Origin: an uncultured Methanosarcinales archaeon
Lineage (GTDB): Archaea; Nanobdellota; Nanobdellia; Woesearchaeales; DSVV01
DNA length: 64,000 nt
Direction: 5' to 3'
Assembly: GCA_964556185.1 (NCBI GenBank)
Contig: CAZKVI010000001.1
Location: 7,165 to 71,164, forward strand
Numbering within the stretch: position 1 is the stretch's first letter; each line of letters starts with the position of its first letter. Below the pieces are notes generated by a model, which was given only the letters and a program-made list of their open reading frames with translations, did no database searches and had not been told where the DNA came from. Positions 6,001-48,169 of the stretch are shown here, in pieces. Position numbers and translations under genes: made by a program.

Positions 6001-9000
6001 TTCTCAAGACCAAGTAAGTATAATTATGAAACTTATCAAAGTATTATGCAAGACTTAGATGCTGATGCTGTACCAAGTTTATCAGGAGATCAAGAAGCAG
6101 AGTTAGTCTATGCTGGTTATGAAGCATATAGGGTTCATCAATATTTAGTAGAATTAAATGAAATGGCAAAACAAATGGGTAGGAAATTATTGGTTGTTCC
6201 AAATTATAGTTATGGAAGATTTATAATAGAACCTATTCAAAAAGATTTAGAACGTTTAGATAATATAATTATCCAACCAGCAAGAATTGGTTCAACAGAA
6301 GCACACTCAAATGATTATTTATTACATGCATCTAATACAAATAGGTTATTTGATGAAAATACAGAAAGAATGATTTTAGAAGAGCAACCTATTATTGTAA
6401 TGGTTGATGGAAGTAATAGTTATACTAGGGGAAGAGATGCTCGTTATCCAGATGCACAAAAAGGCTTTACTAATTGGGGTATTGTATTAAATGATGTTCT
6501 TGGTGTAGAACAAGGCGAAATGCAGAGGACAGATGATCATATAACTGGTTTAAGAGAAACATCAGCTTATGCAACATTAAGAACAAGAATGGAAGGTTAT
6601 GGTATTTCTGTAGAAGGTGCAGAACAATACAATGTGCATTATTGGAATCCAGCAGGAACTTCATTAGCTTTAACAAAAGGTAAGCATGCAACAAGAGTAG
6701 TGGAAACAAAAGTTCCTGTAACACAATCTTCTGAAATTGATGGTCCAGCAGTTGTAATAATTAATTCAGTGTTTAATGATGGTTATGATGATGTTAGTCT
6801 TCCTGCTGATGTAAAAGCAAAAGGAAATAACAAACAACATGAATCTGCTTATTATGATGATACACATCATATTCAAGATATATTATTCAAGAAAGGAAGC
6901 CATGGTATAGAAATACAAGATGAAATTTATGAAGCTATTAGGGACGAATTTACAGATTTTAAACATCAGAATTCTCCATTATATGTTGCAATAGAAGAAA
7001 CAGGAATCTTAACACATAAGCAAGCAACAGAAATGAGATTGCATAGATTACAACATTATTCTGTAGAGAGAGCTACAAGTAAATTATTAGGCAAGCTTTC
7101 AAGACGAGAAATTACTTTAAGTGCTGGTCAAATTGCAGATCTTATTGCAATAATACAAACTCAACAAATTTATGCAGATAGAGAAGTCAGTTCTTCAGAG
7201 GTTGCAAGAGATATTGCTGAGGAAGAAGTAAGAGAAGCAGCAGAGACTTATTTAAGAGATCCTGTTGTAATTGAATATGGAACTTCATGTAGAAGTGCTT
7301 GTGTAATTGGTGCAGAACTTGATGAAAGGGTTATAGGTGTTGAAGAAGGAAGACATGAAGATCTTGGTCCAGTTGTTGCATCAGATGGATATGGGTTATC
7401 AGTTGCTGCAGAGATTATTGATAACTTAGATGATCCTGCAAATGATGGTAATGAACAAGCATTAGTAGATTATGCATTTAGATTATTGGATCAGGTTGAT
7501 GGAGAAGCTCAAGAGGAAGCATTTGCAAGAGCTCAATTCTTGCAAGAAATAAAAGAATTAGAAGCAGAAGTTGCAGAAGAATCAGAAACATATGAAGATA
7601 CTGTTAGTAGTGATATGGTTGACTTACAAGAGTTCCATATATCTAAAGTTATGGTTGCATTGGAAGAGATTATTCCTGTTGAGGTTATTGATGAATTCTT
7701 TTCTCTTGATGTTTCTTTACAAGAGATATTTGATTATTATTTGAGTGCTTATGTGACAGAAGATAATCTTGATCAACTTATAGAATTAGAAGAATTAGAG
7801 TTTATTGGTAGATTGCGTGAAGCAATACTTGTTGATGATCTTGAACTGAGACTCGAGGATTCAACAGAAGTAAATATAATTGGTGCTGAACAAGAAATTT
7901 CAGAACTTGAAAGAACACTTGAGAGAGAGTTTTTTAGTTTTGATGGAATATCAGCAGAATTAGCAAGTAGAATTGTAGCTGTTGATCCTGAATTAACTCC
8001 ACGTGTAATAAGTGGAGAATACACTGATGTAGTTGAAGTAATTGATTCTAGTGTAAGACATACAATAAATGTTGATATAAGGGCAAGAGATAGAATACCT
8101 TTGTTTGTTATTGATAGATTAAGAGCAGGTAGGTCAATTAGTTTACATCAAGGAACTAGTGCAGAATCTATTGTACAATTAAGAAAAGAAGGATTTACAC
8201 AGTTTAACTCATTATCTCAATGGAGACCTAAGTTATGGGTAGCAACAAATGAAGACGGCGCTCTTACTTATTTCTTTGCAGATATTTATAGTGAAAGTAG
8301 ACTTAATGATGTCCAAGCATTGTTAAAACTTTTAGATGTTCCTTCGTCTAATGTTGATACATATGATTATGGACATGAGTATGTTGGAGAAATACGCGAA
8401 GCACTTGAAGGTATTCCTGATGAAAATAAACCAGATGTATTAATTATGGGAGATCAAACAGCTTTTATGCAAGGATATCTTAGAGATGGTTATATTGCAA
8501 GTACACTTGCAACTAATTTACAAGAATTGGTTCAAAGTCAATTAGCAGAAGGAAAACCAATTGTTGAAGCATTACAATCTTATTTTTCTGTAGAAGGTGA
8601 ATGGTTCGATAATTATTATAATGAAATTGTGTCAACTAATTCAATGAGAAATGTGTTAAGGGAACATTTTGTAGAAGTAGGAAGAGCACGTGAGTTAGGA
8701 AGTGTAATGGCGCAGATAAAAGAAAGAGGTTTTATTGATAGTGATTTCTTAGATGAACTTGATGTTCCAAGAGAAGCACAGGCAGAAATATTAAATGCTG
8801 AATATTATATTTCAAAAGATGGGTTTTATGAATCACAAATTCAGTCCTTAGTTAATGATTTGATTGATTTATTTGTTAGTAATCCAAATTATGATGCTTT
8901 ATTGGGTAGTAATCCAAAGGACTTGCTTAGGGATCGGGCTTTGGCAGCAGAATTTACAAAAGCATATGAAGAAGTAGTTAAAGTCTTGGATAAACATAAT

Positions 9001-9828
9001 CTGTTTCGTAGATTTAATACACTTCAAATGCCACAAACTTTTCTTGAAAAATATGAAACTCCTTTTATAGTTATGTATGGGTTTAAAATATTGACTTCAT
9101 CTGGAGAAGTTAAAAACATAATATTAACCCCTAATCCTTATGGGGATCTTGGAGGAGATGTAGTTGATGCAGCCTTGCAGTATAGTGAAGACCATGATTT
9201 AGAGGAAATATTGTTTATTGGTACAGGAGGAGCAATAGCATCCGAAGGTCTTGAAGTACATGATATATATTTTCCTGAATCTGTTGATGTGGAAATTGGC
9301 TACTTGAAAGTTCCAAATGCAATGGCGACAAGATATAAAAGAGGAGAATTACAAACAAAATATTCAGAAGTACATTTTACAAGACACGCTTCTATAGATA
9401 CTGTATTGGAAGAGACTTATCCATTTGTAGAAGCTTTACAAGAAGATGGAATAGAAACACTTGATGTTGAAATAAATACTATTGTTGCTAGTTATAGGCT
9501 TTATTTGGGTTTTGTTTCTCATGAGTTATCCAAATTTTTAACAGAACATCAATCTAAAGCAATAGATAATCATTTACAAAATGGAGAAAGTATTGATAGG
9601 ACTTTTTTAGAAGAACTTGGTATTTCTGAAAGAGAAGTACAAGATAGAGTTCTTTCTATTACGGATAAAGTTCCTAATTTGAGTATTGTTCAACATGTTT
9701 CTGATTTACCATTAGTTCCTGGTTTGACATTAGATGAATTAGGGTTTGGAACATCTCTTGGATTACAGAGAGATAAATATTCTAATTTAATACTTGAACA
9801 TCTTGATGTAGTAGCAGTTGAACCATAA
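4..9828 (+). CDS. Giant (3274 aa) HEAT/PBS-lyase-like repeat protein with a central transmembrane hairpin. It may be 5'-partial at the window edge. A possible C-terminal nucleoside-phosphorylase-like domain is noted.
   Basis: Single uninterrupted ORF. Many GEPAIEPL(I/L)EAL-type HEAT repeats occur in two blocks (about aa 190-620 and 1190-1740). Two hydrophobic helices lie around aa 1120-1185. An internal duplicated ~60-aa module (MVELQDYYMSKVMVALEGIIP / MVDLQEFHISKVMVALEEIIP) is present. The C-terminal ~250 aa contains FIGTGGA and a DVEINT motif reminiscent of the PNP/MTAN fold. Confidence 0.7.
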   Translation: MMENNAPEITFSGGHSLDRYISLVESGVLEFGEHYTSVSINGMDYRIYFLQSQGYDNQMYISGFRIFLNMGEIDSSDGEFFETLTSVTDSLYIQVEDREGTKIEPVVLEEESEASITDVDEAAPLSLETGEVSVELPVQGLVGAEQLGPLEEPVFVDYREAQEMTDQASTNLFLQSLPLLEDAVARGDDNTILTILESLANIAPKVDPTLISMTIPYLVDALGVVEDEVTLNSVASLIANVAEYSTTPELLEDLIVPLVNAYGLVHDGDKPSITMALAAVVVAVDNLPIPELVIIDILIADLKQNENALVISALGKIGESAIEPLIEALKETNGGTFAQDLGEIAKTTNSELIQQLVDSLITDLKETSDYNEAKKLISILGKIAGPAIEPMISLLGQMPDEVLEVKLAQTIGRIGEPAIEPLLAALGETNDIDVISGIGSALSKITGTLMDVELLEPMIEPLATALVKANEQNNDDARYSIVSTLNKIAKQVNPELLRPALEPVADLLETSGVKDVRLMAIVFLREVAEPAIPTLYSRLKQARASGNLELQENIILSFTGMEDFSLVELTDLIKADNEQTKQVLEQLESQGYEFRLQDYGILTSYPEVLLGIPLERDELIAAIREMMPAEHIEKTVQPGYESQNFDDYVGEGSVNQLSIVSLAKLYLMLNTLSNPSFVDRVGLLIIQDFLNTDTETGGVVRLVDGSVALVNFEPSKRGNYKVFASPTEVKVLSFYEVGDYHLHAGTGTTKGNADLAGPSGFLHGSEGDLVVAHLAKRDGVVITHLGGEHGRNSYNVVFYTPTGQVVDLGVYRWNEESVPWLTAEEEVEVKAGMEERRQLATQVVQAALGARVQAMQAAETDVETNLGEFLEANGLEDTCSDCILLIGQVRQLIKDGKLDEARALIDREINALVQGAGSSFVDIANADYARAITELNGLIYLVERDASASIDLLSSIGQLTYQIELVQAKQERLAAIEDGDLIEPWDFVDEVYEDSVSNYMVELQDYYMSKVMVALEGIIPAEFIEISLSHGLKPQDIIRFFLDDYVTDDNLDQISVLGNALEEYAIAAETNPDLSMTAEEARALKDFVLAATSFFIEGTVKIGEDETVVEGQQLSFLSRYGRAVASVAAGVLTLAIAKPVFAATTIIASGTVMPALGIAGGAIAAIIGGYFAYTKVIKPWWLRRNIDSQLEVLATSDDQNEIDTAVQNLVIIGEPAIEPLMTYMEKSFFRDKIFAQAIVEVSNNVGPEVMETFIPRLIEDSLKISPDASFEIGEVFSKIGEPAIQLLVETLESATQRKDYSAKERIVNTFSQIAKTNDPALLWPAIKPLIDSMQAEPFLQNTGTRNLLTTIGAPTMPYLVEALSYTEGDVKKYVIMTIKSIAEKEDVTGEELEQAILPLAESFSTEDTWTTVEVELGLEISKALTEIAKKSDSELFLYTIAPLSNALRIGDSFSKVEAARAVAEIAKKENIDGNSLMPTVYSLMDSFGGLRKHEDKIVVAAAIAEVAKKVDGELFVETVDSLVYMLAIDLRVQNDEREIISDALAAIGVPAIIPLLNSLGDKEARSTEITNTIAKMGDSAIQPIVDSLPELKYEQSVSRAADILAEFGEKAIPGLVEVLQKAEGLQINNILWSITKIAGKEDVSRRALEPLIQPLIDLLMGSFTPALVHSTFGDIGPSTVQPLFEALQATEDHETKRKILFSLSYAIKNVDPEIAEPLIQPMFEIMMEGITGEGVSKISSDAMEVLINMGKTSVPFLLQELEKTKPWSELVEGSKEWMVKKQISGALIKIAQEIMESDLEFVMGSIMDMYVELAFEVGMIADASIQSEIIRSASSFIYILNKNNALTRMDQDYLKQKIIVPFISLLKEQDTFIDHDASFVLKMLGLPALETILTDKDISLDDKKKAFNLLKDTLPAADQFFYELIFELESEDQIGIARRIYTKGIMPTNYLVDNYEEGIEDEWEATLTSIQTRETSMDYDNPLHVALMYTDFRGKIDCCFSRPSKYNYETYQSIMQDLDADAVPSLSGDQEAELVYAGYEAYRVHQYLVELNEMAKQMGRKLLVVPNYSYGRFIIEPIQKDLERLDNIIIQPARIGSTEAHSNDYLLHASNTNRLFDENTERMILEEQPIIVMVDGSNSYTRGRDARYPDAQKGFTNWGIVLNDVLGVEQGEMQRTDDHITGLRETSAYATLRTRMEGYGISVEGAEQYNVHYWNPAGTSLALTKGKHATRVVETKVPVTQSSEIDGPAVVIINSVFNDGYDDVSLPADVKAKGNNKQHESAYYDDTHHIQDILFKKGSHGIEIQDEIYEAIRDEFTDFKHQNSPLYVAIEETGILTHKQATEMRLHRLQHYSVERATSKLLGKLSRREITLSAGQIADLIAIIQTQQIYADREVSSSEVARDIAEEEVREAAETYLRDPVVIEYGTSCRSACVIGAELDERVIGVEEGRHEDLGPVVASDGYGLSVAAEIIDNLDDPANDGNEQALVDYAFRLLDQVDGEAQEEAFARAQFLQEIKELEAEVAEESETYEDTVSSDMVDLQEFHISKVMVALEEIIPVEVIDEFFSLDVSLQEIFDYYLSAYVTEDNLDQLIELEELEFIGRLREAILVDDLELRLEDSTEVNIIGAEQEISELERTLEREFFSFDGISAELASRIVAVDPELTPRVISGEYTDVVEVIDSSVRHTINVDIRARDRIPLFVIDRLRAGRSISLHQGTSAESIVQLRKEGFTQFNSLSQWRPKLWVATNEDGALTYFFADIYSESRLNDVQALLKLLDVPSSNVDTYDYGHEYVGEIREALEGIPDENKPDVLIMGDQTAFMQGYLRDGYIASTLATNLQELVQSQLAEGKPIVEALQSYFSVEGEWFDNYYNEIVSTNSMRNVLREHFVEVGRARELGSVMAQIKERGFIDSDFLDELDVPREAQAEILNAEYYISKDGFYESQIQSLVNDLIDLFVSNPNYDALLGSNPKDLLRDRALAAEFTKAYEEVVKVLDKHNLFRRFNTLQMPQTFLEKYETPFIVMYGFKILTSSGEVKNIILTPNPYGDLGGDVVDAALQYSEDHDLEEILFIGTGGAIASEGLEVHDIYFPESVDVEIGYLKVPNAMATRYKRGELQTKYSEVHFTRHASIDTVLEETYPFVEALQEDGIETLDVEINTIVASYRLYLGFVSHELSKFLTEHQSKAIDNHLQNGESIDRTFLEELGISEREVQDRVLSITDKVPNLSIVQHVSDLPLVPGLTLDELGFGTSLGLQRDKYSNLILEHLDVVAVEP

Positions 9829-18959: not shown

Positions 18960-19358
18960 ATGGTTATAGAAACACTTAAATATTACAATTGCATCTCCAT
19001 TTTTATGGGAAAAAGTGTGATTGCGGCTATGGATGATATTCTATTTTCTTCAAGGATAGATAGTACTGCAAAATTCAACAAAATTAATGTAGATTTTGTC
19101 AAGTCTAGGGACGACTTATTTGAAAAAGCAAGAATGAATAATGCTAGTTTGATTTTATTGGATTTGGATTTTAAAGAATTCGGACCAATGCGAACAATTT
19201 CTCAATTAAAAAAAGATGCTGTTCTAAGAAATGCAACAGTGATTGGTTATCTAGAAGAACATAACACAGAAACAAAAGCAGAAGCAGTTGGCGCAGGAGT
19301 CGATGCAGTTATGCTGAAAGAAGAACTAGATGGCAAATTAAGTAAGATTTTGAGTTAG
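18960..19358 (+). CDS. Stand-alone CheY-like receiver-domain protein. The true start is probably the internal Met near 19008.
   Basis: AAMDDIL acidic pocket, LILLDLDF phospho-Asp region and a conserved K in AVMLKEEL. Confidence 0.5.
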   Translation: MVIETLKYYNCISIFMGKSVIAAMDDILFSSRIDSTAKFNKINVDFVKSRDDLFEKARMNNASLILLDLDFKEFGPMRTISQLKKDAVLRNATVIGYLEEHNTETKAEAVGAGVDAVMLKEELDGKLSKILS

Positions 19359-25278: not shown

Positions 25279-26112
25279 ATGAATGAAAATAAAGCTTTAG
25301 TTGTCTTTCAGGACAAAAAAATCAGGAGAACTTGGCATAAAGATGAATGGTATTTTTCAGTGGTTGATGTGGTCCAGGTTTTAACAAATAGTCCAACTCC
25401 AAGACAATATTGGGGCAAAGTGAAAGATCGTGAATTTAATGCTCTTCAACTGTCCCCAATTTGGGTACAGTTGAAATTGCCTGCAGAAGATGGTAAATTG
25501 AGGCTTACAGACTGTGCAGATACTAAATCTATGTTTAGACTTATTCAATCAATACCTTCAAAAAAAGCAGAACCTTTCAAGCAATGGCTTGCTAAAGTAG
25601 GTCATGAAAGAGTCCAAGAAATAGAAAATCCTGAATTAGCGCAAGATAGAGCAAGAAAATACTATGAATTAAAAGGTTATCCACAAGCTTGGATTGAGAA
25701 AAGATTGAGAGGAATAGCTATAAGACAAGATCTTACAAATGAATGGAATCAAAGAGGAGTACAAGAAGGCAAAGAGTTTGCAATTCTTACAAATGAAATT
25801 TCTAAAGCCACTTTTGGAATTCCAATTAAAGAACACAAAAGAGTAAAAGGTCTTGAACCAAAATACAAAAATCAAAATCTAAGGGACCATATGAATGATT
25901 TGGAAATAATATTTTCAATGCTTGGTGAAAAATTAGCAACAGAAACAACAAAGAAAAAAGATGCACAAGGCTTTAATGAAAACAAAGATGCGGCAGTTGA
26001 AGGAGGCAAAGTGGCAGGCAGAGCAAGAGTCGATGCGGAGAAAAGCCTTGGGATTAAAGTTGTTTCTGAAGATAATTATTTAGATGTTGATAAGAAGAAA
26101 GAGTTGAAGTGA
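25279..26112 (+). CDS. Bro-N domain protein (DinD / phage antirepressor-like).
   Basis: N-terminus ALVVFQDKKIRRTWHKDEWYFSVVDVVQVLT matches the Bro-N core (IRvv..dge.wFva.Dva.aL). Confidence 0.55.
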   Translation: MNENKALVVFQDKKIRRTWHKDEWYFSVVDVVQVLTNSPTPRQYWGKVKDREFNALQLSPIWVQLKLPAEDGKLRLTDCADTKSMFRLIQSIPSKKAEPFKQWLAKVGHERVQEIENPELAQDRARKYYELKGYPQAWIEKRLRGIAIRQDLTNEWNQRGVQEGKEFAILTNEISKATFGIPIKEHKRVKGLEPKYKNQNLRDHMNDLEIIFSMLGEKLATETTKKKDAQGFNENKDAAVEGGKVAGRARVDAEKSLGIKVVSEDNYLDVDKKKELK

Positions 26113-30708: not shown

Positions 30709-31089
30709 ATGACAGAGAAAAAGCGAGTACTTGTGGTTGATGATGAGCCACACATTGTGAAACTAGTGAAACTTAGTTTAGGAAACCAAAATTATGACAT
30801 TGTTGGTATAACTTCAGGTAAAGAAGCAATTTCATATGTAAATGATAATGCTCCTGATATTTTGGTATTAGATCTTATGATGCCAGGAGTTAATGGCTAT
30901 GAGGTTTGCCAAGCTGTACGTGAAAATCCTAAAACAAAAGGCATACCAATTATAATCTTATCAGCTAAGAGTCAAATGCTTGATAAATTAAATGCAATTG
31001 ATGTTGGAGCAGATGATTATATGTGTAAACCATTTGATCCAGATGAATTAGCTAGAAGAATCAAACTTAATTTAAGTATGGTTACATGA
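30709..31089 (+). CDS. CheY-like response regulator receiver protein (stand-alone).
   Basis: VLVVDDEPHIV, DLMMPGVNGYEV, ILSAKSQ, KPFDPDEL. Confidence 0.8.
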   Translation: MTEKKRVLVVDDEPHIVKLVKLSLGNQNYDIVGITSGKEAISYVNDNAPDILVLDLMMPGVNGYEVCQAVRENPKTKGIPIIILSAKSQMLDKLNAIDVGADDYMCKPFDPDELARRIKLNLSMVT

Positions 31090-34039: not shown

Positions 34040-35536
34040 ATGGGAGTAAGCATTCGAACAAAGATAATTATGGTTGTGTTGTTTTTAGTACTTTCTTCTA
34101 CAATGATTGTTGGGTTTTATGTTGCACATTTGAAACTACAAGAAATACTAACTCCTACTCTTACAGGGATTTTATTGCAAAAAGAGACATTGTTGATTAT
34201 AGCAATTACATTTATTATGGCGTTTATTATTGCGATAGCATTTTCTTATACAATTACTAAACCTATTGATGATCTGATTTTAGGTACACAATTGGTTTCA
34301 GCTGGTAAATTAGATAGAGAGATTGATAAATTTACAGATGATGAGATTGGGAGATTAGTGGACGCTTTTAATGAGATGAATGTTAATTTAATGCATACAA
34401 CAGAGCAAAAAACAAAGTTTTCAGAAGAAGCTATATTAGAGAAAAATAAAGCAGAACTTATAATCCAGAGCATGGGTGATGGGGTTATTGTGACTGATAA
34501 AGATCAAAAAATTGTTTTGTTTAATCAAGGTGCAGAGAATATCTTTGAAATTGAAGCAAAAAAAGTTTTAGGAAATCATCTTCTTCATTATAAAAGACTT
34601 TTTGGTTTAGAAAAGAATATCTTGGATAGAATTTATAACCCAGATTTTATAAAGAAAAAACAGTCTTTGTCGACGGAAATAGAATTATTGCAACCAACAC
34701 ATACTGTGCTTAAAGTTGATATTGCACCTCTAAAAAATGAGAAGGGTAATGTTCTTGGAACAGTTTTGGTTTGGCATGATATTACACAACAAAAAGAAAT
34801 TGAAAATATGAAAACAGAATTCGTTTCTATGGTAAGTCATGAATTAAGAACACCATTGACAAGTATTAAAGGTTATGCTGCTTTATTACAGGATCCTAAG
34901 CTTGGATTATTGACAGAAAAACAAAATCGAGCTATTTTAATTATTAACAAAGAGTCAGATAGATTAACTTATTTGATTAATGATATTTTGGATTTAAGTA
35001 AATTAGAAGCAGGAAAAATTAAGTTAAATATAGAACCAGTGAACCTCGAAGAATGTATAGATAATGCTGCATCTTTAGAAGATGTTAAAAAGAAAAATAT
35101 CTCTTTTAGAAAGAGAATTCCAAAAAATATGCCTTTAGTCCCTGCAGATAAAGGAAAAATAACACAAGTATTTACAAATCTAATTAGTAATGCAGCTAAG
35201 TTTACTAAACCAAAAGGAAAGATTATGGTTATGTTATCTAATAGAGAAAAAGATGATTTTGTCGTCGTAAAAGTTAAAGATACTGGTATTGGTATTGCAA
35301 AAAAACATATTCCAAATCTTTTCAATAAATTTTATCAAGTTGAGTCACATTTAAGGAGAAATGTTGGCGGAACAGGATTAGGGTTACCAATTGTAAAAGA
35401 GATTGTAACACTTCATAAAGGAGAAATCTCTGTTAAAAGTAAAATAAAACAAGGTACATCTATAATTTTTAAATTACCTAAATTAAAGGAGAAAAAAGAT
35501 GAAGAAGAAAAAGATAAAAAACAAAAAACAAAGTAA
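34040..35536 (+). CDS. Membrane sensor histidine kinase (TM-HAMP-PAS-HisKA-HATPase).
   Basis: Two TM helices, HELRTPLTSIKGYA H-box and N/G1/G2 boxes (NLISNAAKFT, DTGIGI, GGTGLGL). Confidence 0.85.
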   Translation: MGVSIRTKIIMVVLFLVLSSTMIVGFYVAHLKLQEILTPTLTGILLQKETLLIIAITFIMAFIIAIAFSYTITKPIDDLILGTQLVSAGKLDREIDKFTDDEIGRLVDAFNEMNVNLMHTTEQKTKFSEEAILEKNKAELIIQSMGDGVIVTDKDQKIVLFNQGAENIFEIEAKKVLGNHLLHYKRLFGLEKNILDRIYNPDFIKKKQSLSTEIELLQPTHTVLKVDIAPLKNEKGNVLGTVLVWHDITQQKEIENMKTEFVSMVSHELRTPLTSIKGYAALLQDPKLGLLTEKQNRAILIINKESDRLTYLINDILDLSKLEAGKIKLNIEPVNLEECIDNAASLEDVKKKNISFRKRIPKNMPLVPADKGKITQVFTNLISNAAKFTKPKGKIMVMLSNREKDDFVVVKVKDTGIGIAKKHIPNLFNKFYQVESHLRRNVGGTGLGLPIVKEIVTLHKGEISVKSKIKQGTSIIFKLPKLKEKKDEEEKDKKQKTK

Positions 35537-37199
35537 AGAATCTGGAAAAAAAAGAAAATTACTAACACACTCAGAGCTTGCAAAGCATGAGGGTTATAAG
35601 TATTTATTCGATTGTGCAGTAGATGGCTTTTTTGTTTCAACTAGAAATGGAATTTATATTGATGCAAATAAAAAAAGTTGTAGAATGTTAGGAAGACCTC
35701 TAAATTGGATTATAGGAAAGCATTTTACAGAATTAATGGCAGAAGAGGTAAGAAAAGAAGCTAGAAAAGGCCATAGGGAACTTTGTAAAAAAGGAAAAAC
35801 AAGGGGAGAAAGAATCTTTTTGAGAAAAGATGGCTCGCTTCTTTATGTTGATTTAAAAGCTAGACAGTTTAATGTTGGAAATAGGCGTTATTATATCTCA
35901 ATGATAAGAGATATTAGTAAAAGAAAGAAATATGAATGGGAATTAGAAGAGAGGAATAAAAGTCTTAATACTTTATTGGAAATTGATAATATTCTTGGTT
36001 CAACTCAAGAGACAGATAAGGCTTTAAAATTAATTTTAGATAAAACTGTTAAGTTTACAGAGTCAGATGCTGGATCACTTGTATTAGTTGAAGAAGGAAA
36101 TCTTGTTATTAAATATATGAAAGGTTATAAAAGAGAAGATATAACTCCTGGAGTAACTTTTAGAAAAGGTATTGTAAAAACAGCAGTTGAAAATAAAGAA
36201 TCGCTTTATGTTCCTGATACAAAAAAAGATAAAAGGGTTGTGAAGTTAGTAATTCCAGCTAGATCAGAAGTAGCAATTCCATTAAAAGTAAAAGGAAAAG
36301 TTATTGGTGTATTAGATTTAGAGAGTAAAAAAGTAGATAATTATTCTAAATTTAAACCTTATCTTAATTTATTAACAAAACATATTTCAATGGTTATTGA
36401 GAATTCTAGATTAGTAGATGAGGTTAGTGATTTTAATGAAAGATTACAGGATGAAGTTTATCAAGCAACTAAGGAATTAAGGATTAAAAATTTAGAATTA
36501 CAAAGATTAGATCAATTAAAATCAGACTTTGTTAGTAGTGTTAGTCATGAATTAAGAACTCCTTTAACAAGTGTAGCAGGTTATGCAAAAGTTCTTTATA
36601 GAGGAAAACAAGGAGAACTAACAGAAGATCAAAAAGATTCATTAAATATAATTATTGAAGAAGCTGAAAGATTAACTAGGTTGATTAATGATGTTTTAGA
36701 CTTGAGTAAGTTAGAGACAGGTAGAATTCGTTTTAAATTAGAAAAAGTTAATTTGGTTGAGAGATTAAAACAATGTGTTGATGTTGTTAAAGCATCTGCA
36801 GAAGAGAGTGGAATAAAACTGACTCTTAAAACTTCAAAAAGTCTTCCACTTATTAATGGAAATAATGATCTTCTTGGTCAAGTTTTCATGAATCTTTTAA
36901 GTAATGCCTTGAAATTTACTGATAAAGGTGGTTTTATTTCTATAATTGTTAGAAAAAAAGAGGATTATCTTCGTACAATTGTTAAAGATAGTGGGTGCGG
37001 AATTCCAGATGAAATGCTTCCAAAATTATTTAACAAATTTTACCAAGCAGATATGTCTATGTCAAGAAAACACGGTGGTACTGGTCTAGGATTGCCTATT
37101 GTTAAACATATTATACAAATTCATAAAGGAAATATTACAGTAGAATCAGAAGTTGGAAAAGGAAGTAGTTTTATTATTGATATTCCAATAAATAGATAG
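35499..37199 (+). CDS. Cytoplasmic sensor histidine kinase (PAS-GAF-HisKA-HATPase). The start is uncertain.
   Basis: HELRTPLTSVAGYA H-box, GAF-like middle region, GGTGLGLPIV G2 box. The 5' end overlaps the upstream kinase gene inside a poly-A/Lys-codon tract. Confidence 0.8.
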   Translation: MKKKKIKNKKQSKESGKKRKLLTHSELAKHEGYKYLFDCAVDGFFVSTRNGIYIDANKKSCRMLGRPLNWIIGKHFTELMAEEVRKEARKGHRELCKKGKTRGERIFLRKDGSLLYVDLKARQFNVGNRRYYISMIRDISKRKKYEWELEERNKSLNTLLEIDNILGSTQETDKALKLILDKTVKFTESDAGSLVLVEEGNLVIKYMKGYKREDITPGVTFRKGIVKTAVENKESLYVPDTKKDKRVVKLVIPARSEVAIPLKVKGKVIGVLDLESKKVDNYSKFKPYLNLLTKHISMVIENSRLVDEVSDFNERLQDEVYQATKELRIKNLELQRLDQLKSDFVSSVSHELRTPLTSVAGYAKVLYRGKQGELTEDQKDSLNIIIEEAERLTRLINDVLDLSKLETGRIRFKLEKVNLVERLKQCVDVVKASAEESGIKLTLKTSKSLPLINGNNDLLGQVFMNLLSNALKFTDKGGFISIIVRKKEDYLRTIVKDSGCGIPDEMLPKLFNKFYQADMSMSRKHGGTGLGLPIVKHIIQIHKGNITVESEVGKGSSFIIDIPINR

Positions 37200-37247: not shown

Positions 37248-37532
37248 TTATCTTCTGCCTCTGGTATTTCTTCCACCCATTCTATTGGGTCTTCTATCAG
37301 ATCTTGTTGGATCATCAATTGGTACAGCTCTTCTAGGTCTTTCTTTACCTTCTGTTTTCTTTAATCTAGTAGCATACCCAGCAATAACATTTCTTAATTT
37401 CTTAGATTCAGTATGAATAAGTTCGTCAACTATCTTTTTGTTTTCATCAAAATCCTTAGTTACTCTATCACCATGCTCTTTCATAAGCTGAGTTGTGTTT
37501 CTTTTGATTAAAGATGTTTTAATTCTTCCCAT
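37248..37532 (-). CDS. rps17e: Ribosomal protein eS17 (S17e) with an Arg-rich C-terminal extension.
   Basis: MGRIKTSLIKRNTTQLMKEHGDRVTKDFDENKKIVDELIHTESKKLRNVIAGYATRL matches the S17e core. The tail is ...RRPNRMGGRNTRGRR. Confidence 0.75.
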   Translation of the reverse strand: MGRIKTSLIKRNTTQLMKEHGDRVTKDFDENKKIVDELIHTESKKLRNVIAGYATRLKKTEGKERPRRAVPIDDPTRSDRRPNRMGGRNTRGRR

Positions 37533-37583
37533 GAATTTGCAAGAGAAAGAGGGTATTTATAAAGGTTATTGTTAAATATTATC

Positions 37584-38273
37584 TTAAGCTACTTTTCTGA
37601 GTACACGAGGAGCCCATGATCCAGGTTCAAGATCTTTAGCAGCCCTGGTTTTTTCTTCATCAAGAACAAGTTCATCGGGAAGACCATATTTTCCAAGCAT
37701 GCTCCAGCAAGTATAAATTCTTCCACTAATAGGTAAGTTTGAAGCTATGCTAGCTAATGCTTCTAAAACCAATCTTCTACTTTGTTTCCTGTGCCTTAAA
37801 GTCCATCCACTTACTTTTGCATTTGAGGCATAAATTTTAGTAACACTTTCAATAGTTGCTCCAAGAGCAAAGATATCGTCACCTGAAGCAAATTCTAATC
37901 TATCTAATTTACTTCTAATTTGTTCAAGGCGGCCTTCTTCACAGAAATATCTTCTTCTTAATCTAGTACGGTCTTCTAAAATTGCATCAGAAAGACGGAA
38001 AGTTGAACAACCTCTTGAATGATAAGGAGCTATTGATAAAAATGTTTCATAGTCTCCTCTACTTAGTGCTTCTACTCTTTCACGAACATATGCAATTTGA
38101 TGGGGATTTTTATCACAAACAATTACTCTTCCTGCATTCTCTAGCATTGCAAGAGCTTGGTCACCTCCACTTGTCACAGTTAATATGGTGTCTGAAGTAG
38201 AAGGTTCTAATCCTGCCATGATTGCGTTAACATTTTCATTTGTTGCAAAATATTCTAATCCAGGTCTGCTCAT
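37584..38273 (-). CDS. Hypothetical Rossmann-like protein (possible SAM-binding / DUF3419-like). The gene is GC-elevated.
   Basis: ILTVTSGGDQALAMLENAGRVIVCDKNP resembles a nucleotide-binding beta1-loop-alpha1 followed by an acidic beta2 end. GC is about 42% against a ~31% background. Confidence 0.3.
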   Translation of the reverse strand: MSRPGLEYFATNENVNAIMAGLEPSTSDTILTVTSGGDQALAMLENAGRVIVCDKNPHQIAYVRERVEALSRGDYETFLSIAPYHSRGCSTFRLSDAILEDRTRLRRRYFCEEGRLEQIRSKLDRLEFASGDDIFALGATIESVTKIYASNAKVSGWTLRHRKQSRRLVLEALASIASNLPISGRIYTCWSMLGKYGLPDELVLDEEKTRAAKDLEPGSWAPRVLRKVA

Positions 38274-38312
38274 AATTGTAAAGAATTAAGTTTTATTATA
38301 ATAGTCTTTTGT

Positions 38313-38981
38313 TTATTCTAACCCAATAACATCATCAATATTGACAACTGGTTTGTTGAATTTCTCGTATTCGTCGATTGCTATTCTTGGGCAGGCAGTG
38401 TTTACCCAGACTTCTACAAATGGGAAGTTTTCTAATTGACTAAAATCTACATTATCACATAAGAAAAAGTAACAAGTTTTGCCTTTTGCTTCAATCTTTT
38501 GTTTTAGTTTTTCTGCGTCTTTTAGTCTATTCTGACCAGGTTTTGTAGTAATTATAACACCAATTTCATCTGCTGTTAAGAATTTTAATATTGCTCCTTT
38601 GATCTTTTTCTTTGTTTTCTCAATGTCTTTCTCGTCGATAATTACTAATGTTTCAGTTCTTGGATCATATGCAAAAACTGGTTTCTCATTTTGCATCATT
38701 AAAGCTTGTGGATGAAATAAACCATCTCCAACATAAAGAAAAGCAGGAACATCGCATTTTATTGTTTCGCAGCCTAATATTTGGCCACTATATTTTGTAT
38801 GTTTTCCATCAATAATATGCACTTTAATGCCAGCTTTTTCTAATTGGGCTTTTATTGCTTCAAAAGAATTTATATATTGGACTGTTGTGAATAATGCTAG
38901 TTCTTTAGGAAGGGCTTTTATAACTTCTTTAGATAGTAAAAATGTCTTATTTGCTCTTGCTTCTAACCATAGGGTTTTCAT
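38313..38981 (-). CDS. dph2: Dph2-family diphthamide-synthesis protein (2-(3-amino-3-carboxypropyl)histidine synthase), short form lacking the first domain.
   Basis: GQILGCE, LYVGDGLFHP and FPFVEVWVNTACPRIAIDEY align with Dph2 domains 2 and 3 (GQVLGCN / LFIGSGIFHP / VVVACPRVPLDDY in Pyrococcus Dph2). There is no room upstream for domain 1. Confidence 0.7.
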   Translation of the reverse strand: MKTLWLEARANKTFLLSKEVIKALPKELALFTTVQYINSFEAIKAQLEKAGIKVHIIDGKHTKYSGQILGCETIKCDVPAFLYVGDGLFHPQALMMQNEKPVFAYDPRTETLVIIDEKDIEKTKKKIKGAILKFLTADEIGVIITTKPGQNRLKDAEKLKQKIEAKGKTCYFFLCDNVDFSQLENFPFVEVWVNTACPRIAIDEYEKFNKPVVNIDDVIGLE

Positions 38982-39197
38982 GGTTTTAAGGTACTAGTGG
39001 GTCTTTAAAAACCTTACTATATGATTATAGTACCCATATAGGAGTTATATGCCTTATCTACTTATAAGTAGTATAAAATAGAAAGGTTTATATACTCTAC
39101 TAGAATTCCTAATGTATTGATTTAGTCAATATTATGTATAAAAAGACAAACACTAGGGGGTGTGAATTTGGGGCTTTAAGCGCCTTAAAACGTCAAA

Positions 39198-41261
39198 ATG
39201 AAAAAATCACTATTATTCCTTATCATTGCAATCTTTTTTGTAATAAATACATCTTTTGTTTTAGCTCAGTTAAATGTTTCAGCTCCTGCAAATGTATTTG
39301 GTGAAGCAGAAGAAAATACATGGATGTGGGTATTTGCAGCTGAGTTATCTGATCCAACTCTTAATTTAAGTATTGAATGGGATTTTGGTGATGGGGATAC
39401 TGCGACTGGTTCAGAATTATCTTATTATAATTCTGTTACTGAGATGTGGATTTATGCTATACCTCATGTTTATCAACAATCACAAGGTTATCTTGCATGG
39501 GTAAGTGTTACTAATCCAAATACAGGAGAAGTGCATAGTGAAAATATTGAAGTAATTGTAGAAGAACCTAATGATCCACCTGTTGTTATTATTGATCCAG
39601 CAGAAATTGTAATACCGGTAGGAGATATTGTTGATTTTGATGCATCACAAACATATGATGATCATGATGCTACAGCAGACTTACTTTATTATTGGGATGC
39701 TGATGGAGATGGAACTTTTGAACAAGATGGACAAGGACTTATGAATGTACAAACTCAATTCAATAATTCTGGAGATTATACAATTACATTAGTTGTTTTT
39801 GATTTAGATACAACTTTTTTTTATGGCCATGATGTTTCAACACCTGAATGGGGAATGAATACATCAATTGTTCATGTTAATGAAGGCCCAATTGCAGAAG
39901 CAAACGGAGATTATTATTCAGAATTTGGTAATGATATTCAATTTGATTCAACAGGTAGTTATGATCCAGAAGGATCCCCTCTGGTTTATGAATGGGATTT
40001 TGATAATGATGGAATTGTAGATAGTAATGATGCAAATCCATTGTATGCTTATCCAGATAGTGGAGATTACACTCCTCAACTTTGTGTATATGATGATTAT
40101 AATTTCCAAGATTGTGATACAGCAGATGTTGTTGTTAATTTACCACCTGTAGCAGAAGCAAATGGACCTTATTATTATGAACATAATGAAAAAATTAAAT
40201 TAGATTCAACAGCAAGATATGAAAAAGAAGGAAACAGAGGTTATGACTATTTGAGGTTTGCATGCACAACAATTCCAGATAGTTATGATGAAAGTCCATC
40301 AATTTATTATGAAAATTATGGTGATTATTCAGTAGAATTATGTGTTGAAGATGACGACGGTGCAAGAGATTGTGATGTTGCAGAAATTTCAGTGAATATT
40401 GGACCTGTTGCAGAAGCAAACGGACCTTATGAAGCAAGACCAGATGAAAATATACAATTTAATTCAACAGGAAGTTATGATATTGATGGAAATATTACAG
40501 CTTTTAATTGGGATTTTGATAATGATGGTAATGTAGATAGTTATGATGAACATCCTGAATATGATTATGATGATGAAGGAAATTATACTGCTCAACTTTG
40601 TGTTGAAGATAATGATGGAGCTATTGGTTGTGATACTGCAGAAGTTTCAGTTGTAAGAAATGAAGCACCTGTTGCAGAAGCAAATGGACCTTATGTTTAT
40701 GAATTAAATGAGACTGTTCAATTAAATTCCTCAGGAAGTTATGATCCAGAAGGTGGAGTCTTAATATATGAATGGTATATTGATAATGATGGTTTTGTCG
40801 ACAGTTATGATGAGAATCCATTAGTTAATTATGGAAGTGCAGGAGAATATGATGTAGAACTTTGTGTTGAAGATGACGAAGGAGCTAGAGATTGTGATAC
40901 TGCAGTTGTTTTAATTAGCGAAGACTTAAGCAATGATCCAAGAAGAATAATTTTTATTGATGGAATTAGATTCATGGTTGATGAACTTGAAGTTGAACCA
41001 GGAGATGAATTACCAATTCATGTTGCTATTGAAAACATTGGAAGTTATGATATAAAGAATATTAAGATCTCTGCAGCAATCTTAGAATTTGGAGAATATG
41101 TTCCATGTACTGAGTTTGAGTTTGAAATGAGAAACAAAGAATCTCAAATAATTACTCTTATTATTCCAGAAGATGCTAATCCAGGGTGGTATGATGTTAG
41201 ATTCACAGTAAGTGATGACGACGTTAGAAGAGTTAAACACAGAGACTTCTTAGTTATTTAA
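39198..41261 (+). CDS. Secreted surface protein with about five tandem PKD-like domains.
   Basis: Signal peptide. Repeating ~85-aa units: EANGPY..., SYDP(E/D)G..., WDFDNDG.VDS.D.NP.Y.Y...G.YT..LCV.DD.GA.DCDTA. Confidence 0.65.
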   Translation: MKKSLLFLIIAIFFVINTSFVLAQLNVSAPANVFGEAEENTWMWVFAAELSDPTLNLSIEWDFGDGDTATGSELSYYNSVTEMWIYAIPHVYQQSQGYLAWVSVTNPNTGEVHSENIEVIVEEPNDPPVVIIDPAEIVIPVGDIVDFDASQTYDDHDATADLLYYWDADGDGTFEQDGQGLMNVQTQFNNSGDYTITLVVFDLDTTFFYGHDVSTPEWGMNTSIVHVNEGPIAEANGDYYSEFGNDIQFDSTGSYDPEGSPLVYEWDFDNDGIVDSNDANPLYAYPDSGDYTPQLCVYDDYNFQDCDTADVVVNLPPVAEANGPYYYEHNEKIKLDSTARYEKEGNRGYDYLRFACTTIPDSYDESPSIYYENYGDYSVELCVEDDDGARDCDVAEISVNIGPVAEANGPYEARPDENIQFNSTGSYDIDGNITAFNWDFDNDGNVDSYDEHPEYDYDDEGNYTAQLCVEDNDGAIGCDTAEVSVVRNEAPVAEANGPYVYELNETVQLNSSGSYDPEGGVLIYEWYIDNDGFVDSYDENPLVNYGSAGEYDVELCVEDDEGARDCDTAVVLISEDLSNDPRRIIFIDGIRFMVDELEVEPGDELPIHVAIENIGSYDIKNIKISAAILEFGEYVPCTEFEFEMRNKESQIITLIIPEDANPGWYDVRFTVSDDDVRRVKHRDFLVI

Positions 41262-41274
41262 TTCTTTTTTGTTT

Positions 41275-41952
41275 TTAGAATATAATTGCAGTAGATAAAT
41301 ACATTACAAGAATGAATCTAGTTATTCTTGGAATAAATGCAAAGATTACAAAGTTTAGTAAGCTTAACTTAAATATGCCAGAAATCCAACAAAATGGAAC
41401 ATAAGGTACAGGAGAAATAGCAGCAACTGCTAAGCTAAGTTTACCCCATTTTGCATACATTTTTTTCCATTTTTCATATTTTGTTTCACTATAAAGCATT
41501 TTAATTCCAAACTCTCCATAGAAGTTTCCTAATAAATAACCAACTAAGCTTGCAACAATACTCCCTGATACAGCAGCAAGAAATGCATAATATGGATTAA
41601 TACCACCTAATATTCCGCCAATTAAAGGAACATCTGGACCAATTGGTTGCATTACCATGTCTGCAGCAAAAGCAACAACAAATATACCTATAACTCCATA
41701 TGTTTGAGCGAAAAAAGTTGCTTCATCTTCAAAATGTTTGTAATTGATAATAACTATTGTAAAAACAATAATCATTAGAATGATGAAAATAAGTCCTGTG
41801 TTCTTTGCAAGCTTTTTTTGATATTCAAGTCTTTTTTTATTTATAGCAGAACCACCACTAATAATACCTTTTTCAATAGCTTTTTCTCCTCTTTTAAGAG
41901 CACTTTCACTTGTTTTTAGAACTCTTTTCCCTTTTCTAATAATTCTACTCAT
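41275..41952 (-). CDS. DedA / SNARE-associated (VTT domain) family membrane protein (tentative).
   Basis: Multi-TM protein with a G-rich re-entrant segment (PIGPDVPLIGGILGGINPYYAFLAAVSG). Confidence 0.4.
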   Translation of the reverse strand: MSRIIRKGKRVLKTSESALKRGEKAIEKGIISGGSAINKKRLEYQKKLAKNTGLIFIILMIIVFTIVIINYKHFEDEATFFAQTYGVIGIFVVAFAADMVMQPIGPDVPLIGGILGGINPYYAFLAAVSGSIVASLVGYLLGNFYGEFGIKMLYSETKYEKWKKMYAKWGKLSLAVAAISPVPYVPFCWISGIFKLSLLNFVIFAFIPRITRFILVMYLSTAIIF

Positions 41953-42055: not shown

Positions 42056-44083
42056 ATGCCAGAAATAGGAGAACCTCCAAAGCCAAAAAGAGTATCAGCT
42101 GATAAGTTCTTAGAGCAAGAAGAAGAAAGACATTATGTACATTCTCCTGGGGAAGCTCAACAATCAGAAGGAGAAGAACCTCAATTAGAAAAAGTACTTA
42201 GTTATCCTGTTATTTTACTTATTACTATAAATTCCATCATGGGTACTGGAATATTCTTTTTGCCTGCTGTTGGAGCAAGTTTAGCAGGTCCAGCTTCATT
42301 AATAGCATGGGCTGTTATGGCAATAATTGCTATTTATATTTCAATGATTTTTGCAGAATTAACATCTATGTTTCCAGAAGCAGGTGGAATTTATGAGTTT
42401 TGTAAGCAAGCTTATGGTTATTTTTGGAGTTTCTTAATAGGATGGGGAACTTTAATAGCTGGAAATATAACAATAGCGATGTTAGTTGTTGGTGCTATAC
42501 AATATTTAGTTCCTGTAGAAGCACCTTTGGTTACAATACCAATTGCATTATTCTTTTTGTTTATGTTTAATTATATTGCATATAAAGGTATGAAAACTTC
42601 AGCAGTTATGTTGGTTGCTTTTGCAATAATAACATTTTGTGCAATACTTGGTTTAGCAATTCCTGGTGCACTTTCATTTCATCCAGAAAATTTTACTCCA
42701 TTTTTTATCGGGCCAATGTCATTGATAATAATAACTATTTTTAGTATTTCTGAAACATTCTTTGGTTGGGAAACTGCTACATTCTTAGCAGCAGAAACAA
42801 AAGATGGAGCAAGAGTAATGCCAAAAGCATTGATTTGGGGAACAGTAATAATTGCAGTGATTGTTCTTTTTTCTGTTTTTACTAGTCTAAATGCAATTAA
42901 TTGGGAAGTATTTGGAGGTTCTTCTGCTCCATTATCTGATTTAGCAGCTGTGCATTATGGTGATCTTGGTGTAAAAATATTTACAATTATTGTTTATTTA
43001 GCTATTATTGGGTCAGTTGCTGGTTGGATTGTTTCAGCACCTAGATTAATATTAGCAATGGCTCAAGATAAATTATTTTTAAGTCAATTATCTAAAATTC
43101 ATCCTGTCTATAAAACTCCTTACAAAGCAATTATTTTTCAAACAATTGTTACGTCGATTTTAGTTATAATTGGAGGTGGAGCATATAAAACTCTATTACA
43201 TTTACTTGTTCCATTAGTTTTAATTCTTTATAGTGCAGTAATTCTTAGTTTATTGTTTTTAAGAAAGAAATTACCAGACCATACTCGTCATTTTACAACA
43301 CCTTTTGCATGGCCTGGGTGTATTATTGTAATCTTGTTTTTATTGTTCTTAATAGTTATGTGGTTAATAACAACAGCGCATGCAGTACCAATTTTCTTAT
43401 TGGCATTATCTTTGTTGTTTTTTGGAATACCAATCTATATTTTGTTAAAGGTTTATTATGATCCAGATGCTGCAGTTAGTTTAAATAATTATATTGCACC
43501 ATTGTCATTTTTATTTGATAGGTTCTTTATTTTAAAGTCTGTGAAGCAAGAAATATTTGATCTTATCGACGAGGAAATTGAAGGCAAAAGAGTTCTTGAA
43601 TATGGCTCATCTGTTGGTACATTAACTAAAGAAATTGCTTCTAGGGCAGGAAGTGATGGAGAAGTTTATGCAACAGAAATCTCAGCTAATGCAATTAAAA
43701 TAGCAAAATGGAGATTAAAAAGATTAAATTTAGAGAATGTTGAGTTTTTCCATGATCCTCATCAAGTTAATCAAGTACATCAAGGAGTTCCAAGAGTGCA
43801 TGCAATTGTTTCAATGGGCATGTTTGGTTATATGCAAGATATTGAGAAGGTTTTGAGAGAGATGCATGAAAGACTTCCTGATGGCGGAAAGATTTGTTTT
43901 TGTGATTATGTTGATTTCTTTCATATGCTTCCAAATGCAGGTTGGTTAGCAAACGAAGATATGATTAAGGATATATTTGATAAAGTTGGCTTCAGAGTAA
44001 TTATTAGAAAGAAAAAGTCTTTGTTCTGGAATTATTTATTTATCTATGGAATTAAGTCTGAGGATGAAGTTCCGTTTGCATAG
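42056..44083 (+). CDS. Fusion protein: an APC-family amino acid permease joined to a C-terminal class I SAM-dependent methyltransferase domain.
   Basis: About 12 TM helices with APC signature (ITINSIMGTGIFFLP). After about aa 480 come VLEYGSSVGTLT (motif I) and DGEVYATEIS. Confidence 0.6.
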   Translation: MPEIGEPPKPKRVSADKFLEQEEERHYVHSPGEAQQSEGEEPQLEKVLSYPVILLITINSIMGTGIFFLPAVGASLAGPASLIAWAVMAIIAIYISMIFAELTSMFPEAGGIYEFCKQAYGYFWSFLIGWGTLIAGNITIAMLVVGAIQYLVPVEAPLVTIPIALFFLFMFNYIAYKGMKTSAVMLVAFAIITFCAILGLAIPGALSFHPENFTPFFIGPMSLIIITIFSISETFFGWETATFLAAETKDGARVMPKALIWGTVIIAVIVLFSVFTSLNAINWEVFGGSSAPLSDLAAVHYGDLGVKIFTIIVYLAIIGSVAGWIVSAPRLILAMAQDKLFLSQLSKIHPVYKTPYKAIIFQTIVTSILVIIGGGAYKTLLHLLVPLVLILYSAVILSLLFLRKKLPDHTRHFTTPFAWPGCIIVILFLLFLIVMWLITTAHAVPIFLLALSLLFFGIPIYILLKVYYDPDAAVSLNNYIAPLSFLFDRFFILKSVKQEIFDLIDEEIEGKRVLEYGSSVGTLTKEIASRAGSDGEVYATEISANAIKIAKWRLKRLNLENVEFFHDPHQVNQVHQGVPRVHAIVSMGMFGYMQDIEKVLREMHERLPDGGKICFCDYVDFFHMLPNAGWLANEDMIKDIFDKVGFRVIIRKKKSLFWNYLFIYGIKSEDEVPFA

Positions 44084-47710: not shown

Positions 47711-48169
47711 TTGAGGGGAATGAAAAAACGTATTTTAATAGCGGATGATGAATATACAATCAGAGAACTAATAGAAATGACACTAGAGTCTGATTATGAG
47801 GTAATTAAGGCAGAAGATGGTCTAGAAGCCCTTAAAATGGCTCAATCTAAGCCTGATTTGATAATTCTTGATATTATGATGCCAAAATTAGATGGTTTTG
47901 AAGTGTGTAAGAGATTGAAATCAGATAGAGAAACTAGAGAAATTCCAATTATTATGCTTACAGCAAAGCATCAAATGGAGGATGTTAATAATGCAACATC
48001 TTGTGGTGTTGATGAATATATTACAAAACCATTTGAACCAGAGTTCTTAAAAAAGAGAATTGATGTAAATTTTAAACAAGTTGATGAGAATTTACCAGCT
48101 GAAAAGAAATTGTTTAGATATGGTAAAAGTTTGCATTACATTAAAGGCAGACAAAACGTTCCTAATTAG
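47711..48169 (+). CDS. CheY-like response regulator receiver protein (stand-alone).
   Basis: ILIADDEYTIRELI, DLIILDIMMPKLDGFEV, MLTAKHQ, TKPFEPEFL. Confidence 0.8.
   Translation: MRGMKKRILIADDEYTIRELIEMTLESDYEVIKAEDGLEALKMAQSKPDLIILDIMMPKLDGFEVCKRLKSDRETREIPIIMLTAKHQMEDVNNATSCGVDEYITKPFEPEFLKKRIDVNFKQVDENLPAEKKLFRYGKSLHYIKGRQNVPN

Follow-up and report, generated by a model that had tools for sequence, protein, structure and literature searches.

Dph2 is a [4Fe-4S] enzyme that depends on S-adenosylmethionine (SAM) and moves a 3-amino-3-carboxypropyl group onto a histidine of elongation factor 2 (EF2). The stretch of archaeal DNA analyzed here (the window; 64,000 nucleotides of contig CAZKVI010000001.1) encodes a Dph2 homologue of only 222 amino acids (aa), here called Dph2C, which lacks the first of the three Dph2 domains together with its cluster cysteine. 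The locus thus raises the question of what such a shortened open reading frame (ORF) represents, and of where the missing part of the enzyme might be. Our analysis suggests that Dph2C is probably the C-terminal subunit of a Dph2 split between two genes, the N-terminal partner gene being located elsewhere in the genome.

Dph2C matched PF01866 over profile positions 82-285 of 302 (E 1.6e-50, 172.7 bits; cutoff 33.2) and the domain model TIGR00322 with 166.9 bits (cutoff 35). With TIGR03682, the equivalog model of archaeal Dph2 (arCOG04112), it aligned over positions 74-292 of 308; owing to the missing N-terminus its score was 176.1 bits, below the cutoff of 202.8. The motifs GQILGCE and VNTACPR were located at residues 66 and 193, respectively. 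In the alignment with Dph2 of Candidatus Methanoperedens (6bxm_A), which spans 6bxm residues 93-304, residue 4 of Dph2C corresponds to residue 93; in Pyrococcus horikoshii 3lzc_A, residue 148 (native residue 112) is the equivalent of residue 21. Canonical homodimeric Dph2 (P. horikoshii 3LZD, Ca. Methanoperedens 6BXM/6BXN, Methanobrevibacter smithii 6Q2D) is 28-35% identical to Dph2C and has the fold of domains 2 and 3, two cysteines and the pocket residues in common with it (with D290 replaced by E204), but Dph2C lacks the first ~90 residues, comprising domain 1 and Cys59. An in-frame stop codon is present 5 codons before the ATG, and a gap of 216 bp separates the gene from its divergent neighbor. 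The initial annotation, which had described domains 2 and 3 of Dph2 without the first domain, without its Fe-S cysteine and without coding space for them upstream, was correct on all of these points.

The [4Fe-4S] cluster of P. horikoshii Dph2 (PhDph2) is bound by Cys59, Cys163 and Cys287, one from each domain of the three-domain chain (PMC11048331). C71 of Dph2C is equivalent to Cys163 and C197 to Cys287; an equivalent of Cys59 is absent from the polypeptide and from the upstream DNA. The published SAM-pocket residues of CmnDph2, G158, H180, Q237, V265, R285, D289 and D290 (PMC10669111), map to G70, H90, Q150, V178, R199, D203 and E204 of Dph2C. Six of the seven are identical and the last is an exchange of Asp for Glu. 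Since all seven positions have a counterpart, the SAM pocket in this definition lies wholly in the retained part of the enzyme. An AlphaFold2 model of Dph2C (predicted local distance difference test, pLDDT, 86.6) was compared with the PDB using Foldseek. The top 15 matches were all Dph2 (E 2.5e-16 to 3.7e-13), followed by a match with E 0.05. Template modeling (TM) scores against the Dph2 structures were 0.70-0.81 when normalized to the query (0.75-0.81 for the canonical structures named above) and only 0.51-0.58 when normalized to the target, because one third of each Dph2 target has no counterpart in the model. Judged by its sequence, Dph2C is an intact, conserved Dph2 without domain 1 and its cysteine, and a partner would therefore be needed.

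We next consider how widespread the short form is. Among 5.8 billion proteins searched, more than 120 homologues were identified, with lengths of 214-255 aa and 47-100% identity to Dph2C. Where a source name is attached to the homologues, it is Candidatus Woesearchaeota or Nanoarchaeota, and we conclude that the window derives from a Woesearchaeota-type DPANN archaeon. At least 575 candidate stretches in the GTDB species genomes, scanned with one genome per species, encode relatives of Dph2C; the best 80 of these had the same short form, and their titles were nearly all Woesearchaeota or Nanoarchaeota. In an alignment of 17 sequences C71 and C197 were invariant, as were G70, H90, Q150, R199 and D203, and the short proteins shared an MKTLFIEA-type start. 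Upstream of the gene, a TATA-like hexamer started at -35 to -26 relative to the ATG in 65 of 76 loci in which the C-terminal gene is unlinked to an N-terminal gene, with the consensus AAA-nn-TTT-WW-AAA at -35 to -23. The archaeal TATA box is positioned ~26 nt before the transcription start. A box ~30 nt before the ATG would thus place the start at or near the ATG and make the Dph2C mRNA leaderless. The box at -30 to -22 of Dph2C in the window suggests a promoter of such a leaderless, independent transcript.

These data bear on whether the 222-aa ORF is a pseudogene, left over from the decay of a full-length Dph2. Its length, below that of canonical Dph2, and its score under the TIGR03682 equivalog cutoff speak for this. 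However, the same length and the same type of start recur in the related species genomes examined, the catalytic residues are invariant, the promoter-like box is conserved in 65 of 76 loci and the structure model is confident. The probability of a pseudogene is negligible, and we regard this reading as ruled out by conservation.

A precedent for a divided enzyme exists. In several DPANN genomes the N- and C-terminal parts of Dph1/2 are encoded by two genes (Narrowe et al. 2018, PMC6143161); the paper states only this much about the arrangement. The window resembles these genomes in having a C-terminal-only Dph2 gene in a Woesearchaeota-type DPANN genome, with the break at the boundary of domains 1 and 2 and with stand-alone N-terminal genes in the same group. 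Dph2C is itself a stand-alone, conserved C-terminal gene that starts at this boundary. Split Dph2 in DPANN archaea is already known and the locus is largely ordinary, contrary to the proposal that it might encode a new, non-canonical aminocarboxypropyl transferase.

The first probe for N-terminal genes was the N-terminus of P. horikoshii Dph2, identical to 3LZC (phmmer and jackhmmer). Of the 80 related loci, two (L063 and L075) had an 88-aa N-terminal ORF directly upstream of the C-terminal gene. Using this ORF and then a 62-sequence profile, we gathered many stand-alone N-terminal proteins of 80-108 aa. Q24, P26, D27, K30, G57, C59, D60, P62, G77 and H78 are invariant among them, and they contain the motifs QLPDGLK and CFGACD, the latter with the equivalent of Cys59. 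The N-terminal gene adjoins the C-terminal gene in most metagenome loci; in Pacearchaeota-type contigs it is found directly before, or within ~1.1 kb of, a C-terminal gene for ~246-249 aa. Other N-terminal genes have no C-terminal gene nearby, either within 5-10 kb of flanking sequence on each side (L155, L169 and L172) or on a 22-kb contig, where the gene is located between eS1 and topoisomerase I (L179). These unlinked N-terminal proteins carry the NCBI name Candidatus Woesearchaeota. Thus, the two halves are adjacent in Pacearchaeota-type genomes, whereas they are unlinked in the clade of the window, with none within 10 kb at 78 of 80 loci. Note that the gene of L179 (82 aa; 6543-6791 of JBDRIN010000003.1) starts 2 bases after eS1 and upstream of topoisomerase I. 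Both halves of split Dph2 tend toward ribosomal-protein genes, the N-terminal half toward eS1 and the C-terminal half toward eS17 or a uS7-like family.

Some of the contigs bear unexpected titles. Many third party annotation (TPA) assemblies titled 'uncultured Methanosarcinales archaeon' (L008, L009, L011 and others) carry Woesearchaeota-type short Dph2 genes. Aminicenantes bacterium is the title of a metagenome-assembled genome (MAG) with one of the C-terminal genes, and Acidobacteriota is the name attached to one N-terminal gene (L015; P0128). These oddly titled Dph2-bearing contigs are probably mislabelled or mis-binned.

Neighbor-joining trees were calculated for both halves. In the C-terminal tree 79 unlinked proteins, including that of the window, split cleanly from 55 adjacent-type proteins; mean identity was 45% within the unlinked clade, 56% within the adjacent clade and 37% from one clade to the other. 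Of the 9 unlinked proteins in the N-terminal tree, 8 fell into a clade of 15 members that contained none of the 62 adjacent-type proteins. The proteins of this clade end mostly with GHS.W or GHT.W and not with GHNRY.K..EW. That orphan halves form two matching clades in one taxon is most simply accounted for if they belong to a single enzyme, the genes of which have drifted apart.

Several results weigh against an N-terminal partner encoded at a distance. Neither an N-terminal gene nor a remnant of one was detected in the 64-kb window by Pfam analysis of ten small ORFs or by phmmer and jackhmmer; a hidden Markov model (HMM) of 97 stand-alone N-terminal proteins had no match in the window, and tblastn with six N-terminal-domain queries (E<=50) gave a best E of 0.38 over its whole length. 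The ±10 kb around 78 of the 80 related C-terminal loci likewise contained no N-terminal gene, and no contig or assembly was found that carries both an unlinked N-terminal gene and a C-terminal gene of the 222-aa type. Moreover, the trees were calculated without support values, and the N-terminal one from a short alignment; their mirrored topology is therefore supportive but not decisive. We also clustered the neighbors of the C-terminal gene, using the ORFs within 4 kb of 84 C-terminal loci. None of the clustered neighbors resembles the N-terminal domain as a substitute for domain 1; the clusters were limited to a fusion between an amino-acid permease and a methyltransferase, a membrane protein of 90 aa, and uS7- and aIF1A-like families.

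Alternatively, the woesearchaeal clade might have truly lost domain 1, its two-domain Dph2 working alone with two cysteines and another ligand such as a residue of the dimer partner or a small molecule. Besides the lack of an N-terminal gene in the window and within 10 kb of 78 of 80 related loci, and the failure to find both halves together in one genome of this type, the retention of two cluster cysteines and of all SAM-pocket positions in Dph2C speaks for this view. Single Cys-to-Ala mutants of P. horikoshii Dph2, described by Zhang et al. in Nature in 2010, reportedly kept activity. Yet unlinked N-terminal genes do occur in MAGs named Woesearchaeota, where they form their own clade and strictly preserve the QLPDGLK, CFGACD and GH motifs; such orphan genes are difficult to account for without a C-terminal partner encoded at a distance in each case. 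In addition, both halves were found in DPANN genomes by Narrowe et al. (PMC6143161). Loss of domain 1 thus appears unlikely, and a split Dph2 is the reading we prefer. The source genome probably carries an N-terminal Dph2 gene outside the window, as the sequences of its relatives suggest.

In such a split enzyme, the large subunit contains the SAM pocket and two of the three cysteines for the cluster. Domain 1 (~85 aa), with the third cysteine in CFGACD and with QLPDGLK, would most likely be made from a separate gene elsewhere. Non-covalent binding of this small subunit to the large subunit would then rebuild the three-domain active site, and the assembled Dph2 would probably be a dimer of heterodimers. 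The biochemical interest is modest but real: we know of no natural split enzyme that has been reconstituted in which a polypeptide of 85 aa donates, in trans, one of three ligands to a catalytic [4Fe-4S] cluster. In the clade of the window the two genes are not even neighbors any more. A true two-domain Dph2 would be interesting as well. We consider it improbable, however, that the clade lacks any domain-1 gene and relies on a minimal two-domain, two-cysteine Dph2 or, as a weaker variant, that the 85-aa Fe-S-ligand subunit acts as a dissociable, separately regulated switch of EF2 modification. For annotation, a DPANN "diphthamide synthesis protein" of ~220 aa would be half an enzyme, neither a fragment nor a new enzyme. 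Split Dph2 also skews genome-completeness estimates that are based on marker genes (Narrowe et al., PMC6143161).

We then asked whether the substrate of the enzyme is preserved. The 64-kb window contains no EF2 gene. EF2 of three relatives with unlinked short Dph2 (L043, L052 and L084) retains the motif HEDAIHRGPAQ, which contains the diphthamide histidine. In these loci the EF2 gene is only 5-7 kb from the short Dph2 gene (L043, 4639-6822; L052, 2800-4980; L084, 3655-5754), and the gene of the enzyme is thus near that of its substrate. Homologues of Dph5 have been reported for Woesearchaeota by Narrowe et al. (PMC6143161). Together with the EF2 motif retained in the relatives, this suggests that the diphthamide pathway appears to be in use in this Woesearchaeota group. 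Note that a family that, by inspection, looks like uS7 is close to short Dph2 in 18 loci.

The gene directly downstream of Dph2C encodes a protein of 229 aa, which the initial annotation had considered compositionally foreign (~42% GC). The actual GC content is 37.1%, the third highest of the 56 ORFs in the window and ~1.7 standard deviations above the gene mean (32.1 ± 3.0% for genes of >=100 aa; 32.0% for the window). The GC content at third codon positions (0.161) is identical to the gene mean (0.161 ± 0.039). The excess GC thus stems from the Arg, Gly and Ala content of the protein and not from foreign codon usage.

The 229-aa protein matched DUF3419 (PF11899) with E 2.8e-10 and 40.4 bits (cutoff 28.2), but only over profile positions 10-86 of 385. 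An exhaustive HMMER search for its family returned 573 cluster representatives at E<=1e-3, of which 337 had E<=1e-10. The members are ~210-260 aa long and many align across the whole protein. None exceeds ~47% identity, except for P0278, a 106-aa fragment identical to the protein's own N-terminal half. Among 50 aligned members 48 matched DUF3419 and 12 matched Methyltransf_25; one member is named "DUF3419 family protein [Nanoarchaeota archaeon]". NCBIfam had no match for the 229-aa protein and gave only weak generic methyltransferase matches for its relatives. PADLOC produced one weak match (E 0.0017, 15 bits) and PHROGs none.

An AlphaFold2 model of the 229-aa protein (pLDDT 91.5) matched INMT (2a14), NNMT (2iip), AviRa (1o9g) and TrmN in the PDB (Foldseek probability 1.0, TM 0.4-0.5). 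M1, E13, D28, D54 and S150, but no cysteine, are invariant in the alignment of 50 family members, and G37, D38 and Q39 are nearly so. By sequence comparison TSGGDQ is the putative SAM-binding motif I and VIVCD provides the acidic residue after strand 2. We conclude that the protein is predicted to be a small SAM-binding protein of the class I methyltransferase fold. It has the glycine-rich motif I and the acidic residue after strand 2 in common with the class I methyltransferases INMT, NNMT and AviRa, but the TM scores are only 0.4-0.5, the identity is 12-17% and no curated methyltransferase family was matched by the 229-aa protein itself. BtaA is a SAM-dependent 3-amino-3-carboxypropyl transferase that acts on diacylglycerol. 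The Rhodobacter sphaeroides protein, product of the canonical gene for synthesis of diacylglyceryl-N,N,N-trimethylhomoserine (DGTS), strongly matches DUF3419 (PMC6642084). The N-terminal ~75 residues of the 229-aa protein, containing the SAM-binding motif region, resemble this family above the Pfam cutoff. However, the model has 385 positions as compared to 229 aa, the full-length domain is not covered, and the predicted fold is nearest to small-molecule and rRNA class I methyltransferases. Judged by sequence, the protein may transfer either methyl or aminocarboxypropyl groups. The proposed SAM-binding Rossmann fold and the likeness to DUF3419 were thus confirmed, the latter for the N-terminal part only. 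The protein belongs to an uncharacterized family of small, DUF3419-like SAM-binding proteins, and nothing here ties this family to diphthamide.

Could the 229-aa protein be the functional partner of Dph2C, contributing SAM binding or a cluster ligand from an operon with eS17? In favor are the adjacency of the two genes on one strand, with 39 bp between them, the membership of BtaA in DUF3419 (PMC6642084), and the recurrence of the gene order in four further metagenome contigs of the same organism. However, the order Dph2C, 229-aa gene, eS17 was found only in these contigs, in which Dph2C is identical to that of the window. Other relatives of Dph2C have quite different neighbor genes. L006 is syntenic with the window (VTT-domain gene, eS17 and two histidine kinases) but lacks the 229-aa gene; a spacer of 50 bp is all that lies between its Dph2C, which is 74% identical to that of the window, and the downstream eS17. 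An HMM of the 229-aa family detected no member in 97 other loci (~1.1 Mb) around Dph2 C- or N-terminal genes. The absence from L006 and from these loci indicates a lineage-specific insertion into the spacer between Dph2C and eS17. Furthermore, only the first 20% of the DUF3419 profile are matched, the five invariant columns of the family include no cysteine, and Dph2C already has a complete SAM pocket. Dph2C, the 229-aa gene and eS17 each have a TATA-like box of their own, 22-31 nt before the start codon. An operon is therefore unlikely, and the genes appear to be transcribed separately, as leaderless units. A partnership with Dph2C is thus very improbable and largely refuted by the absence of conserved linkage. 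The adjacency is best read as coincidence, and the 229-aa gene is a recent, unrelated insertion. Of the initial annotation, the need of a two-domain Dph2 for a partner was upheld, while the partner is most likely the separately encoded N-terminal domain of ~85 aa instead of the 229-aa protein, and the operon with eS17 was not supported.

A search for repeats flanking the insertion revealed only short matches at chance level. A 12-nt direct repeat on the coding strand, GG(A/G)TTAGAATA, is present at 38251-38262 and 38314-38325 of the window. It spans the end of the Dph2C reading frame (GLE-stop) and codons 5-8 of the 229-aa gene (GLEY), and may be due to chance or represent microhomology at the insertion junction. 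A second difference from L006 concerns a gene at 39198-41261 (+) for a 687-aa protein with five PKD domains and, by eye, a hydrophobic, signal-like N-terminus. It is located between Dph2C and the VTT-domain gene (41275-41952). The latter two are adjacent in L006, and the PKD gene is thus a second insertion or deletion difference at this locus. The syntenic histidine kinases are encoded by two tandem, overlapping HAMP/PAS/GAF genes at 34040-35536 and 35499-37199 (+).

Table 1. Genes and promoter-like elements around Dph2C (positions in the window).
Feature	Position	Strand	Basis
Dph2 C-terminal gene, 222 aa (domains 2 and 3)	38313-38981	minus	PF01866, TIGR03682, 6bxm alignment, AlphaFold2 model
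229-aa gene, predicted class I SAM-methyltransferase fold	37584-38273	minus	DUF3419, AlphaFold2 model
eS17 gene, 94 aa	37248-37532	minus	PF00833 E 2.8e-15; NF002242
TATA-like box TTTTTAAAG	39003-39011	minus	-30 to -22 from Dph2C ATG; sequence read
TATA-like box TATTATAATA	38294-38303	minus	-30 to -21 from 229-aa gene ATG; sequence read
TATA-like box TTTATAAATA	37554-37563	minus	-31 to -22 from eS17 ATG; sequence read

eS17 is simply an ancestral neighbor of Dph2C. It scored 84.4 bits with NF002242 (cutoff 72), the match covering residues 1-63, and TTTATAAATA also precedes eS17 in L006. The last ~30 residues, beyond the curated model, form a C-terminal tail rich in Arg, Gly and Pro. Note that in another gene call (L089) eS17 of the same locus has 78 aa.

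The most common neighbor of short Dph2, found within 4 kb in 26 of 84 loci, is a fusion protein, an amino-acid permease that carries a class I methyltransferase domain at its C-terminus; in the window it is encoded at 42056-44083 (+). The window also encodes a class I lysyl-tRNA synthetase (LysRS), a thermosome subunit, FtsZ, Spt5, uL11 and an archaeal-type D-aminoacyl-tRNA deacylase. Response-regulator genes are located at 18960-19358, 30709-31089 and probably 47720-48169, the last identified by eye. A 277-aa protein encoded at 25279-26112 (+) contains a Bro-N domain, which is typical of proteins of viruses and mobile elements. Finally, a giant ORF of at least 3274 aa occupies positions 4-9828 (+). 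It starts 3 bases from the left edge of the window, so that its true start may lie upstream, and the one match in Pfam, to HEAT repeats near residues 311-442, is weak.

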